This document shows positions 19,099 to 23,102 of a DNA stretch of 64,000 bases, piece by piece. The position numbers were made by a program, and so were the translations under genes. Source of the DNA: Polyangia bacterium (GTDB taxonomy: Bacteria; Myxococcota_A; Polyangia; Fen-1088); the NCBI GenBank assembly GCA_035549075.1, contig DASZRT010000032.1, positions 48,488 through 112,487 of the forward strand, read 5' to 3'. Each line of letters starts with the position of its first letter. Positions within the stretch are counted from its first letter, which is position 1. A model generated the notes under the pieces. The model was given only the letters and a program-made list of their open reading frames with translations, made no database searches and had not been told where the DNA came from.

Positions 19099-20523
19099 CT
19101 AGACTTCGAAGCCGAGTGACTTCAGCTCGGCTTCCAGAGCTTCGAGCTCTTTCCGCACGTTCTCGGGCGCGGGGCCGCCCTTGACGGTGCGCGCGGCGAC
19201 GGCGCGCGCGGGATCGAGCGCCTGCATGACGGCGGGCGTGAGCTTGGGATCGATCGCCGCGAGCGCCTTCGCGTCGAGACTGCGCAGGGATACGCCGCTT
19301 TCGCCAGTCTCCTCTGCGGCGCGCACGAGCTTGCCGACGATCTCGTGCGCCGAGCGGAACGGCAGCCCGCCGCGCACGAGCTCCTCGGCGAGGTCCGTCG
19401 CGCCGAGCGCCGGATCGCCCGCGGCCGCCTGCATGCGCTCGACGTTGAACTCGAGGCTGTCGACGAGGCCGGGCAGCACGGCCAGCACTTGCCGCGCCGT
19501 CTCGACGGCGTCGTAGAACGGCTCCTGCGTCTCCTGCAGATCCTTGTTGTAGGCGAGCGTGAGGCCCTTGCTGATCGTGAGCAGCGCGACGAGATCGCCC
19601 ATCACGCGCGCCGGCTTCGCGCGCAAGAGCTCGGCGATGTCGGGGTTGCGCTTCTGCGGCATGAGCGAGCTGCCCGAGCAGTAGCCCTCGCCGAGGCGCA
19701 CGAAGCCGAACTCCGTCGTCGACCACAGCACGAGCTCTTCGCCGAGGCGAGAGGCGTGCACGCCCATGAGCGCGCACGCGAAGGCGATCTCGGCGGCGAA
19801 GTCGCGGTCGGAGACGGCGTCGAGGCTGTTGCGCGTGGGGCCGCCCTCGAACGCGAGGGCGGCGGCCGTGTTGGCGCGATCGATCGGCAGGCCCGTCGAC
19901 GCGAGCGCGCCCGAGCCGAGCGGTGACTCGCCGGCGCGCTTGGCCGCGTCGAGCAGGCGCCCGCGATCGCGGCGCAGCATCTCGGCGTAGGCGAGCAGGT
20001 GGTGGCCCAGCGTCACGACCTGCGCGCGCTGTAGGTGCGTGTAGCCCGGCAGCAGCGTGCCCGCGTGCTCGCGCGCGCGCCGCGCGAGCGCGAGGCGCGT
20101 GCGGTCGATGCCCGCGACGAGATCGACGCACGAGCGCAGCGCGTAGAGCCGCAGGTCGGTCGCGACCTGATCGTTGCGGCTGCGCGCCGTGTGAAGGCGC
20201 CGCGCCGGATCGCCGACGAGCTCGGTGAGCCTCGACTCGACGTTCATGTGCACGTCCTCGAGCGCAGCGTCCATCTTGCGCTCGCCGCGCTCGAACTCTC
20301 CCGCGACCTGGTCGAGGCCGGCGACGATCGCGTCGGCGTCGGCCGCGCTGATGAGGCCGACCGACGCGAGCATGCGCGCGTGCGCTTGGCTGCCGCGAAC
20401 GTCGTCGCGCAGCAAGCGACGGTCGAAGTCGATCGACGCGTTGAGCGCCGCCGCCGCCGGATCCATGGCGCCCGAGAACCGCGCGCCGCGTCCTCCCGCG
20501 ACAGCTTTCTCCTGCTTCGTCAT
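19099..20523 (-). CDS. argH: argininosuccinate lyase
   Basis: Fumarase/aspartase-family signatures ([21 protein letters not shown]) and the overall ArgH architecture. Confidence 0.9.
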
Positions 20524-20683
20524 GCTGCGCTTTTACCGTTGCGTCTCGCAGAGCGCGACACATTTCGGACGCGTAACTTCGTCACGATCGTCGCGCGCAA
20601 ACGTGGCGCGTGCGCGACCTGCAAGCTACTCTGAAATCGAGGGCACCGTGACCGGCTGGCCCACAAAAGGAGGACAAGAACGC

Positions 20684-20767
20684 ATGAGTAAACGCACCCA
20701 AACGCACGGTACGGATTCTCACCGCACTCTCTCCCGCTTCGGCGCCAAGGAGCCCGGGCGAAGCTGA
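20684..20767 (+). CDS. candidate small ORF (27 aa) with consensus RBS
   Basis: AAAGGAGG sits 8 nt upstream of an ATG (MSKRTQTHGTDSHRTLSRFGAKEPGRS). It lies in a low-GC 514-bp intergenic region with mixed codon bias. Confidence 0.3.
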   Translation: MSKRTQTHGTDSHRTLSRFGAKEPGRS

Positions 20768-20903
20768 GCCTCCAGTTCGACTGACACAGGGTTTTCGAGC
20801 TCGTAGCACCCGAAACCGGTCCCGCGACGAAAGCTCGCGTCAAAGGCCATAAATCGGGCGGCGCCTCGAGGCGCTAGCTCTCGACCAGCCCAATAGCGGT
20901 CCC

Positions 20904-20947
20904 GAAACGCGCCGAGGAGAATGTTCTCCCGGCGCGTTTCCTTTTAG
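20904..20947 (+). terminator. Rho-independent terminator-like hairpin
   Basis: gaaacgcgccgAggagaa-tgt-ttctcccggcgcgtttc: a 17-bp stem with one bulge and a 3-nt loop, followed by cttttag. Confidence 0.55.
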
Positions 20948-21037
20948 AGCAAGTGAGCGCAGCGCGGCTTTGCCGCGCGGAGCGAAGGGGGTTCGGGGGC
21001 ACCCGAGCGAAGCGAGCGGTACCCCCGACGACTACGA

Positions 21038-21811
21038 CTACGATGCGCGCTTGACGCGGAGGCCGTTGAGCTCGTCGAGGAACTTCGCCGTCGTCTCGAT
21101 GCTGTTCTCGAGCGACTCGATGACCAGGTTCAGCAGGCCGTCGTTCTCGAAGCGCAGCACCTCGTAGTAGCGCTGACGATCGATCGAGTGGATGACCGCC
21201 GGCAAATAGCCGTGGCGAATCAGGATGTAGTTCATCAGCAGGCGCGCCAGCTTCCCCGAGTTCTTCGTCCACGGGTAGATGTTGAGCAGCCGGAAGTGCG
21301 CCTTCGTCGCGCGCGTGATCGGGTGCAGCTCGTTGAACTCGTCCGAGTGCATCCACTCGTCCAGCTTCTTCATCTTCGCCGTGATCTTCTCGGGCGGCGC
21401 GATCTCGTGATAGTAGAGCCGGTGCAAGGGGTTCTCCTTGCGGAACGGGAAGCCCTTCGCCGCCGCCTCGGGCGTGATGAGCCCGTAGAGCTTCTTGATG
21501 AGCTCGAGGTCGATGGGCGTCGGCTTCTTGCCCGAGTTGGCGTCGCGCACGAAGTCGACGGCCAGCTTGTGGTTCCGAACCTCCTCGTACATCGGGATCA
21601 GCGTGACATCACTGATGATGCGCTGATCGATCGCGGCCTTGAGCTCGGAGTACGAGAGGACGACGCCCTCGAGCGCGTTGTCGTGGAAGATCCACGAGAC
21701 ATCGAGACGGTCCTGATACGTTTTGAGGATGCTCGCCGGGAACGAATTCTGCTTCCCACGCAAACTCTCCATCTTGGCGTCGAGCTCGAAGAACTTCGCG
21801 TCCATCCCCAT
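21038..21811 (-). CDS. Fic-family protein with degenerate catalytic motif
   Basis: AHFRLLNIYPWTKNSGKLARLLMNYILI aligns to the Fic core a-H-x-x-f-x-x-IHPFxDGNGRxxRLLmNxlL. The catalytic His is Tyr here, and D, N and R of DGNGR are K, S and K. Confidence 0.7.
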   Translation of the reverse strand: MGMDAKFFELDAKMESLRGKQNSFPASILKTYQDRLDVSWIFHDNALEGVVLSYSELKAAIDQRIISDVTLIPMYEEVRNHKLAVDFVRDANSGKKPTPIDLELIKKLYGLITPEAAAKGFPFRKENPLHRLYYHEIAPPEKITAKMKKLDEWMHSDEFNELHPITRATKAHFRLLNIYPWTKNSGKLARLLMNYILIRHGYLPAVIHSIDRQRYYEVLRFENDGLLNLVIESLENSIETTAKFLDELNGLRVKRAS

Positions 21812-22112
21812 CTCCTAAGTTCCTTCCTTTTGAACGTGGCGAGTTCCGGGATTAACGAGGGGCCGGTTCAGTTACCAGCAGCGGGAAATCGTATTTCGCG
21901 AGAACCCTTTGGTCAAGCGGGGTTAGGAGACTTTTTCCCCAGGTTACAGAGTCTGGCCGACGTGTCTTGTTGCTTCCAAGTTTCGGGATGTCAGGGCCCT
22001 CACCACGTAGATCGCGCTTTTTGCAGGGCCAAAGCACCCGCACCAGCTGGCGGACTTAGATTCGTAGAGCCGATATACATAAAATCATTAGAAAATTCGC
22101 CTTGTTCAAAAC

Positions 22113-22140
22113 TTGACTCGCCGCCCTCCTGGGCAAGAAT
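22113..22140 (+). promoter_or_regulatory. candidate sigma70-type promoter of the dcw cluster
   Basis: TTGACT (22113-22118), a 16-nt spacer, then AAGAAT (22135-22140). It ends about 8 nt before the rsmH ATG and is preceded by an AT-rich stretch. Confidence 0.3.
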
Positions 22141-22148
22141 GACCGGAC

Positions 22149-23102
22149 ATGCGGGCCGAGCGCCGTATCGCCTCCGGTCCCGGTGCCCCAGACGCATCGG
22201 TTGACGGAATTCGGGCGCTGCACGAACCGGTGCTGCTGCAAGAGGTGCTCACCTACCTCGAACCGCGGTCTGGCGGCCTTTATTGCGACGGGACCGTCGG
22301 CATGGGCGGACACGCGCGCGCGATCCTGGAACGGGCCGCGCCCGACGGGCGGCTCGTCGGCATCGATCGCGATCGCGACGCGCTCGCCGAGGCGAAGGCG
22401 ACGCTCGAGCCGTTCGGCGATCGCGTCACGCTGGTGCACGCGCCGTTCGCGCGCGCGCGCGCCGTGCTCGAAGAGCTGGGCGTCGTGCCGGTCGACGGGT
22501 TCCTCGTCGACCTCGGCGTGTCGTCGCCGCAGCTCGACCGCGCGGAGCGCGGCTTCTCGTTCCGCGGCGCGGGTCCGCTCGACATGCGCATGGATCAGAG
22601 CGGCGGCGAGACGCTCGCAGAGCTGCTGCGACGCGTGGACGAGGGCGAGCTCGAGCACATCATCCGCGAGTACGGCGAAGAGCGGTACGCGCGCCGCATC
22701 GCCGCGGCGATCATGCGCGAGCGCGACGCGCTCGACTCGACGGCGGCGCTCGCGGCCGTCGTCGCGCGCGCGATGCCGGCGCACGAGCGGCACAAAAACC
22801 CGGCGACGCGCACGTTCCAGGCGTTGCGCATCGCCGTCAACGACGAGCTCGGCCAGCTCGCGTCGTTCCTCGACGGCGTGACCGACTGCCTCAAGCCGGG
22901 CGGCCGGCTGTGCGTCATCGCGTTTCACTCGCTCGAGGACCGCATCGTCAAGCAGCGGCTGCGGCGGCTCGCGGGCAAAGACGGCAGCGGGCCGGCGCGC
23001 CTGCGCCTGCTCAACAAGCACGTCGTCGTCGCCGGCGAAGAAGAGCGCCTGCGCAACCCGCGCGCGCGATCGGCGAAGCTGCGCGCCGTGGAGAAGCTCT
23101 GA
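22149..23102 (+). CDS. rsmH: 16S rRNA (cytosine1402-N4)-methyltransferase
   Basis: HEPVLLQEVL...DGTVGMGGHARAIL...VDLGVSSPQLD are MraW motifs. First gene of the dcw cluster. Confidence 0.9.
   Translation: MRAERRIASGPGAPDASVDGIRALHEPVLLQEVLTYLEPRSGGLYCDGTVGMGGHARAILERAAPDGRLVGIDRDRDALAEAKATLEPFGDRVTLVHAPFARARAVLEELGVVPVDGFLVDLGVSSPQLDRAERGFSFRGAGPLDMRMDQSGGETLAELLRRVDEGELEHIIREYGEERYARRIAAAIMRERDALDSTAALAAVVARAMPAHERHKNPATRTFQALRIAVNDELGQLASFLDGVTDCLKPGGRLCVIAFHSLEDRIVKQRLRRLAGKDGSGPARLRLLNKHVVVAGEEERLRNPRARSAKLRAVEKL

Follow-up and report, generated by a model that had tools for sequence, protein, structure and literature searches.

Fic proteins have been studied almost wholly as enzymes. Of those described, the best match in sequence and in structure to the protein reported here is FICD (human HYPE; FIC-1 in C. 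elegans), a class II AMPylase and de-AMPylase of BiP. In FICD, His363 is the general base that deprotonates the target hydroxyl, Asp367 binds the essential Mg2+ ion and Glu234 of the inhibitory helix forms a salt bridge with Arg374; the H363A mutant has background activity only and binds AMPylated BiP tightly (PMC6826200). Here we analyse a stretch of 64,000 nucleotides from a Polyangia bacterium (assembly GCA_035549075.1, contig DASZRT010000032.1, positions 48,488 to 112,487 of the forward strand), referred to below as the window. Next to its division and cell-wall (dcw) gene cluster, the window contains a gene for a Fic-fold protein in which the catalytic His is replaced by Tyr, and the same His is missing from the family to which the protein belongs.

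We know of no role assigned to a degenerate Fic motif besides those of a few secreted effectors. BepC of Bartonella has a Lys at the Asp/Glu position of its FIC motif and no detected enzymatic activity; this Lys contacts the alpha-phosphate directly, AMPPNP is bound without Mg, and the protein acts by binding and relocalising GEF-H1 (PMC8401265). AvrB, a Pseudomonas syringae effector of the Fido superfamily, has a Fic-like fold without the signature and binds host proteins (PMC4454073). The altered motifs of Doc and AnkX support phosphorylation and phosphocholination, respectively (PMC4454073, PMC8401265). Clades with Fic motifs missing key residues have already been noted (PMC4454073) and Bartonella effectors with degenerate motifs discussed (PMC8401265). 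In the literature, we found no paper on the present family or on natural FICD-like proteins without the His.

Fold and relationship to FICD

The gene and the parts of it that concern the active site are as follows, with residues numbered in the 257-residue form of the protein:

21038..21811, minus strand: coding sequence of the Fic-fold protein, 257 residues from the ATG at 21811 (open reading frame list)
21230..21277, minus strand: Fic signature in degenerate form, Y179-P-W-T-K-N-S-G-K-L-A-R190-L-L-M-N194, corresponding to HPFxDGNGRxxRLLxN (alignments)
21665..21685, minus strand: H43-D-N-A-L-E48-G49, aligned equivalent of [S/T]xxxE[G/N], the inhibitory helix motif of class II (alignments)
21383..21442, minus strand: block R124-I143 (RKENPLHRLYYHEIAPPEKI), aligned to the target-docking flap of FICD

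The protein belongs to the Fic fold superfamily, as an alignment in a preliminary description of the locus had indicated. The Pfam Fic family (PF02661) matches residues 100-197 with an E-value of 3.7e-12, scoring 47.4 bits where the gathering cutoff is 24; the match spans profile positions 2-93 of 93, and Fic is the sole domain found in the Pfam scan. There is no specific NCBIfam model for the protein, and database sources name it just "Fic family protein". When the single sequence was compared by phmmer with the sequences in the PDB, human FICD came out on top (5e-22), with IYPWTKNSGKLARLLMN aligned to IHPFIDGNGRTSRLLMN of FICD and FHDNALEG to YHTVAIEG. A profile of 34 family members matched FICD (3e-39), FIC-1 (2e-32) and the structure 3CUC (2e-30).

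The model calculated by AlphaFold2 from an alignment of 53 sequences has a predicted local distance difference test score (pLDDT) of 87.6 and a predicted template modelling score of 0.88; a run without alignment reached a pLDDT of 42.8 and was discarded. Foldseek placed this model closest to FICD structures in the PDB, with E-values around 1e-10 and query-normalised template modelling (TM) scores of 0.76-0.81, followed by BT_2513 of Bacteroides (3CUC, TM score 0.76) and FIC-1 of C. elegans. Because FICD, FIC-1 and 3CUC are the top structure and profile matches, sequence and model point to a single-domain Fic of the FICD or class II type, with a putative internal N-terminal inhibitory helix.

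With FICD, the protein has in common the collinear core, the Glu-Gly of the inhibitory helix, the second Arg of the signature and the flap block, as well as LHP, AH and RxxYY motifs; unlike FICD, it has neither a tetratricopeptide repeat domain nor a membrane anchor. In architecture and size (244-262 residues) it corresponds to the bacterial single-domain Fic proteins, such as BT_2513 and the canonical 244-residue Fic protein of a Clostridium botulinum plasmid (WP_003362363.1). BLASTP aligned the latter over its full length, at 31% identity and with the motifs in register.

The remodelled active site

The counterpart of HPFxDGNGRxxR in the window protein is YPWTKNSGKLAR, the codons of Y179 to R190 occupying 21277..21242. 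In it, the catalytic His has become Tyr (Y179), and the signature Phe Trp. The Mg-binding Asp is replaced by Lys (K183); in the anion hole, Asn (N184) takes the place of the first Gly and Ser (S185) that of the Asn; and the first signature Arg has become Lys (K187). In FICD numbering, H363, D367, G368, N369 and R371 are thus Y, K, N, S and K. The signature Pro, the second Gly, the second Arg (R190) and the Glu of the inhibitory helix (E48) are unchanged, and the aligned equivalents of His363, Asp367, Glu234 and Arg374 of FICD are Y179, K183, E48 and R190. The Clostridium protein keeps a canonical IHPFIDGNGRCGR together with NAIEGN, where the window protein has IYPWTKNSGKLAR.

The preliminary description had located the motif at about 21240..21280 and listed the His to Tyr, Asp to Lys, Asn to Ser and Arg to Lys changes; position and substitutions are borne out, the same changes being seen against FICD and against the Clostridium protein, with Phe to Trp and the first Gly to Asn in addition. 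An intact HPFx[DE]GNGR elsewhere in the protein, which would have spoken against that alignment, is not there: a regular-expression search of the whole protein found no H.[FWY].[DEN][GA]N[GK]R and no HP[FWY]. The protein does not carry HxFx(D/E)GNGRxxR with its invariant His, the signature of catalytic Fic AMP transferases; judged by sequence, it lacks what defines the catalytic enzymes while resembling class II Fic proteins in architecture. Without the general base, without the metal ligand and with two residues of the anion hole replaced, the window protein is very unlikely, by analogy with FICD, to AMPylate or de-AMPylate. The H363A mutant of FICD being catalytically dead, a fold in common with FICD does not imply a common activity.

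The inhibitory motif aligns with HTVAIEG of FICD and NSNAIEG of the Clostridium protein; its Glu and Gly are retained and conserved, as is R190, the second signature Arg, and the Ser/Thr position is occupied by Asp (D44). The flap block ranks with the best-conserved stretches of the protein: the 53-sequence alignment shows no variation at R124, P128, L129, H130, R131, Y133, H135, I137, P140 or I143, and Y133 falls on the flap residue Val316 of FICD (HMMER alignment, numbering derived from H363). We also considered that the catalytic His might have migrated and rejected this, the conserved histidines being either common to FICD or not invariant: H43, H135, H163 and H172 occur in FICD too, and H130 and H208 vary across the wider family.

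A family without the catalytic histidine

A HMMER search of 1.84 billion cluster representatives (50% identity) gave 4209 matches at E <=0.001, 120 of them at E <=1e-30, and the best 150 of the 4209 were surveyed. The catalytic His is found in none of these 150 representatives whose motif region is present, and their consensus reads [FY]P[FW]xxxSG[KR]xxRLxxN. The His position is filled by Phe in some members and by Tyr in others; therefore, the side chain there cannot be the catalyst. Some distant members have FPFxExNGR or YPxxxHNGR. This retention of xPFxExNGR suggests that loss of the His preceded a later drift of the Mg and phosphate ligands.

Residues invariant throughout the family are H43, G49, R124, Y133, A168, P180, G186, R190, R212 and Y215, and position 48 is always acidic. 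Most of these are also present in FICD and therefore mark a common scaffold, not a relocated active site. Named members include proteins of the cultured bacteria Polyangium jinanense (595 residues, WP_272423020.1) and Vulgatibacter incomptus (257 residues, AKU90645.1), others coming from metagenome-assembled genomes (MAGs) labelled "Deltaproteobacteria", "Polyangia" or "Myxococcales". Among the named members there is none from outside the Myxococcota; most of the family are metagenome proteins without a name.

About 29 of the 150 representatives are longer, at 370-790 residues. The five long forms that were retrieved (P0138, P0140, P0144, P0147 and P0201) have N-terminal extensions of 250-450 residues, rich in Lys, Ala and Pro, which resemble histone H1 tails and contain no Pfam domain; some long forms also bear charged, coiled-coil-like ERAKREAE repeats. 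The metagenome representative P0183 (788 residues) is fused to YjeF_N and carbohydrate-kinase domains of NAD(P)HX repair; as a single representative, it could be a real fusion or a mis-assembly.

Within the closer relatives, the degenerate signature is nearly fixed. YPWTKNSGK[VL]ARL[LV]MN is found in 119 of the 120 best database matches (75-100% identity) and HDNALEG in 118. Against five close orthologues, the ratio of non-synonymous to synonymous substitution rates (dN/dS) is 0.10-0.18, with dS at 0.44-0.57. Over 42 loci with all genes complete, the median identity to the window is 79.8% for the Fic protein, compared with 66.5% for RsmH, 65.5% for FtsI and 78.4% for ArgH. With the motif near-invariant, dN/dS low and identity above that of RsmH and FtsI, the gene is not decaying and is under purifying selection. 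In two loci from long-read MAGs, the match to the Fic protein begins late, at residue 98 (L052) and residue 70 (L055); these are probably assembly frameshift errors rather than pseudogenes.

Comparison with other non-canonical Fic proteins

The FIC domain of BepC is a parallel in the sense that its motif is naturally non-canonical, with Lys at the Asp/Glu position, and that it works in the way proposed below for the window protein. BepC differs in that its catalytic His and its GNGR anion hole are intact; it binds AMPPNP, belongs to class I as a secreted effector of a type IV secretion system with OB and BID domains, and is not closely related. AvrB differs in being a secreted effector in which the whole motif is missing rather than substituted, and has no detectable sequence relationship. 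The motifs of AnkX (HxFxDANGRxxV) and Doc (HxFx[DN][AG]NKR) keep the catalytic His, unlike that of the window protein, and vary in other ways. Membership of the Doc kinases is not indicated either, the window protein having no motif His and no NKR and finding its best matches among FICD-type proteins, not Doc. Nor does the gene resemble a class I Fic toxin-antitoxin pair: its neighbours are rsmH and argH, the inhibitory motif is internal, and the neighbouring 27-residue open reading frame contains no [ST]xxxE[GN].

Gene start and carboxy-terminus

21812..21816, minus strand: AGGAG ribosome-binding site, located 6 nt before the ATG at 21805 (sequence)
21041..21058, minus strand: conserved basic C-terminal tail, R-V-K-R-A-S-COOH

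A second in-frame ATG at 21805 would give a product of 255 residues. Because AGGAG directly abuts the first ATG (21811) and sits 6 nt before the second, the 255-residue form is probably the true product. The (A)GGAG is kept at the end of the intergenic alignment of 24 loci, and a database protein from a Polyangia MAG (P0001, GCA_964589105.1) has 255 residues and is 100% identical. The peptide AHFRLLNIYPWTKNSGKLARLLMNYIL is found in the window protein. The GC content at third codon positions (GC3) of the gene is 93%, typical for native genes of this genome of 70% GC.

The protein ends in x-x-[KR]-[KR]-A-S, with mostly Arg at the first of these positions, in 119 of 120 orthologues; in the wider family, the commonest ending is AS. 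It is speculation that RVKRAS-COOH might serve as a recognition tag for a protease or a partner; its conservation is what was measured.

Genomic context

22149..23102, plus strand: rsmH, first gene of the dcw cluster (Pfam Methyltransf_5, open reading frames, gene calls on an identical contig)

On the identical contig, rsmH is followed by ftsL, ftsI, murE, murF, mraY, murD and ftsW. The Fic gene is divergent from rsmH and has argH on its other side. A synteny scan with one genome per GTDB species gave 57 loci, all from Polyangia or "Myxococcales" MAGs. In 51 of them, rsmH lies upstream on the opposite strand at a distance of about 70-820 bp, and these 51 include members from the Nannocystaceae and FL481 with 36-43% protein identity; argH is downstream in about 30 of the 57. 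The neighbours of homologues at 45-52% identity, and of the Polyangium jinanense and Vulgatibacter incomptus genes, are unrelated to the dcw cluster; therefore, the linkage is lineage-specific. The gene of Polyangium jinanense adjoins one for a Ser/Thr kinase of 1778 residues and is near a DivIC/FtsB-like gene.

The gene thus occupies the place at the head of the dcw cluster, immediately upstream of rsmH, in which mraZ is normally found. This position is all it has in common with mraZ: the protein folds are unrelated, and mraZ is co-directional with rsmH, while the Fic gene is divergent from it and not co-transcribed. In tblastn searches of 65 loci with MraZ of E. coli and of Polyangia as queries, mraZ was absent from the window and from all loci other than L046 and L048. 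In these two, it lies between the Fic gene and rsmH (a match of 132 residues, 37-39% identical to MraZ of E. coli). We therefore reject a replacement of mraZ, since Fic gene, mraZ and rsmH occur side by side at L046 and L048; the Fic gene is a long-standing neighbour of the dcw cluster, brought next to rsmH in those loci that lack mraZ.

What the preliminary description had said about this context is supported, with limits. The divergent orientation recurs across species as set out above, and the position at the head of the cluster stands. A survey of orthologues, proposed there, finds the same substitutions nearly invariant and the synteny widespread, with the distant homologues departing from the latter. 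The description had also taken the 337-bp AT-rich region between the two genes for a shared regulatory region; the length and the low GC content are correct, and the sharing is not supported by the layout described next.

Intergenic region and small elements

21812..22148, no strand: spacer between the Fic gene and rsmH, 337 bp with a variable middle (21817..22148 after the ribosome-binding site)
21888..21925, minus strand: predicted promoter of the Fic gene, with -35 TTGACC at 21916..21911, a 17-nt spacer and -10 TACGAT at 21893..21888
22083..22140, plus strand: predicted promoter of rsmH and the dcw cluster, AATCATT followed by AAAACTTGACTC (promoter scan, conservation)

The spacer has a GC content of 52.8%, against 70.1% for the window. 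In the alignment of 24 loci, it consists of two conserved blocks with variable sequence between them. One is the promoter block of the Fic gene, which is invariant in these loci; the 14-mer TAACCCCGCTTGAC (21925..21912), which extends into the -35 hexamer and is unique in the window, occurs in exact form once in each of 35 loci, 85-120 nt upstream of the Fic start. The promoter of rsmH has its -35 hexamer (TTGACT) at 22113..22118 and, after a 16-nt spacer, its -10 hexamer (AAGAAT) at 22135..22140; GTCAAGTTTTG is likewise unique in the window. A scan for sigma70-type promoters returned these two predictions in the region against 0.4 expected, and both coincide with the conserved blocks. Lying back-to-back about 200 bp apart, they make the spacer two separate promoters rather than one demonstrably shared control element.

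The annotated ATG of rsmH (22149) is about 8 nt past the predicted -10 hexamer (22135..22151, plus strand) and is kept in the closest loci, for which reason the dcw messenger RNA may be leaderless. Homology of RsmH to other loci begins around residue 24.

Between argH and the Fic gene, and in the opposite orientation to both, an open reading frame of 27 codons (MSKRTQTHGTDSHRTLSRFGAKEPGRS, 20685..20768, plus strand) is preceded by a strong ribosome-binding site, AAGGAGGA. Of the 19 loci in which it was identified, 18 keep it at 26-27 codons, the copy in L052 being truncated to 21 codons; its variation looks like third-position wobble, and its product has no Pfam or NCBIfam match. Downstream of it, a conserved region of about 180 nt (20769..20947, plus strand) ends in an intrinsic terminator, GAAACGCGCCG...CGGCGCGTTTC followed by a run of T. 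The region folds better than shuffled sequences (z = -3.4), and RNAalifold gives 19 pairs, three of them with compensatory changes. Rfam has no match at gathering thresholds in the whole window, and chance-level matches alone in 20500-22200; ARAGORN found no tRNA and no tmRNA. Given the absence of an Rfam match, the region may represent a structured 3' untranslated region or a small RNA that has escaped annotation.

Discussion

The model that we consider best supported, and on balance probable, is that the window protein is a non-catalytic pseudo-Fic that acts by binding a conserved partner. It would be a cytoplasmic, single-domain protein of the FICD or class II type that has kept the fold and lost the chemistry, with the partner bound by the flap and the active-site groove; a weak contact of the S-G-K...R loop with phosphate or nucleotide may persist. 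Its gene would be of a housekeeping type in an uncultured clade of Polyangia, a group of soil myxobacteria, with its own conserved sigma70-type promoter placed back-to-back with that of the dcw cluster. A binding role is plausible because the H363A mutant of FICD holds AMPylated BiP, because BepC acts by binding, and because of the conservation seen in the flap block and in the Glu-Arg pair. The suggestion of a pseudo-enzyme or non-AMPylating Fic protein, already made in the preliminary description, has gained in strength from the purifying selection, the family-wide absence of the His and the inactivity of FICD H363A (PMC6826200).

Several points weigh against this model. The loss of activity is predicted from the sequence and from the behaviour of mutants in other Fic proteins; phosphorylation and phosphocholination are catalysed by some Fic and Doc motifs that are likewise non-canonical; the clade could be keeping YPWTKNSGK nearly invariant for a new chemistry and not for binding alone; and the dcw linkage, absent in distant members, may be an inherited gene order without functional meaning.

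If a new chemistry is what is being conserved, the protein would still be an enzyme, with the remodelled Y-P-W-T-K-N-S-G-K...R loop catalysing a different reaction, such as a Mg-independent nucleotidyl or phosphoryl transfer or a hydrolysis, by means of Lys183, Lys187 and another base such as H130, H135 or H208. A variant motif so nearly fixed points to a new constraint and not mere relaxation, and three features of the loop are retained throughout the family, namely the second Gly, the second Arg and a basic residue where the first Arg would be. The Lys of BepC, which contacts the alpha-phosphate in a site that binds AMPPNP without Mg (PMC8401265), and the other reactions supported by the altered motifs of Doc and AnkX (PMC4454073, PMC8401265) provide precedents. 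However, every characterised Fic or Doc activity keeps the His, at a position where Phe and Tyr alternate here; the first Gly of the anion hole now has a side chain and the Asn is lost; none of the histidines looks like a compensating base, H130 and H208 being variable and H43, H135, H163 and H172 being present in FICD; and BepC itself shows no detected activity (PMC8401265). On this evidence, an altered enzyme is unlikely. The genomic position raises a different prospect, that of a functional successor to MraZ that regulates the dcw cluster or cell division and acts on the spacer or on a division protein. The divergent arrangement with rsmH in 51 of 57 species-level genomes, down to members of 36-43% identity, the lack of mraZ in the window and nearly all loci, and the conserved non-coding blocks of the spacer are in its favour, and the histone-H1-like tails of the long forms suggest an association with nucleic acids for part of the family. 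Yet no DNA-binding domain was detected in the window protein, which the Fic fold accounts for as a whole; L046 and L048 carry both genes; the more distant homologues, including those of Polyangium jinanense and Vulgatibacter incomptus, are away from the dcw cluster; two ordinary sigma70-type promoters explain the conserved blocks; and the likewise conserved linkage to argH suggests a frozen gene order. We regard such a successor to MraZ as decidedly unlikely, and any connection of the Fic gene with cell division is one that synteny suggests.

That the gene might instead be a functionless relic of a toxin-antitoxin, defence or mobile-element gene is hardly credible. Fic genes are often found on mobile elements, and plasmids and a few phages bear FICD-like ones, but none of the plasmid and phage relatives exceeds 31% identity to the window protein, and they have the canonical motif. 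The PADLOC models for anti-phage defence (SoFic, PDC-S04) do match, at 1.6e-16 to 6.7e-13, in a generic manner that does not identify a defence gene. Against decay stand the low dN/dS and a conservation above that of RsmH and FtsI; against mobility, a chromosomal position fixed across 57 species and a native GC3. There is no adjacent antitoxin-like gene with [ST]xxxE[GN], the inhibitory helix being internal. A mobile, toxin-antitoxin or defence origin was thus rejected on conservation, codon usage and context.

Within the favoured model of a binding protein, a more specific version can be formulated, by analogy with the engineered H363A mutant of FICD that traps AMPylated BiP. The His-less FICD-like domain would act as a reader or trap, binding a nucleotidylated or phosphorylated protein, or an unmodified partner, without turnover, and so coupling a signal to the divisome or to the expression of cell-wall and division genes in this lineage of Polyangia, where the dcw cluster no longer begins with mraZ. 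We offer this version as a long shot.

What has been found is a natural and conserved pseudo-Fic, linked to the division cluster in a way that can be tested, and not something categorically new. It represents a deeply conserved chromosomal family in which the catalytic His is replaced, and the protein evolves more slowly than neighbouring essential genes. This provides a clean natural test of the use of a Fic fold that does not catalyse, and the position of the gene, back-to-back with the dcw promoter, points to a concrete phenotype. If it is true that the family binds modified proteins, it would be the first candidate reader domain for AMPylation; otherwise, it would be a well-defined pseudoenzyme family that the annotation "Fic family protein" has concealed.

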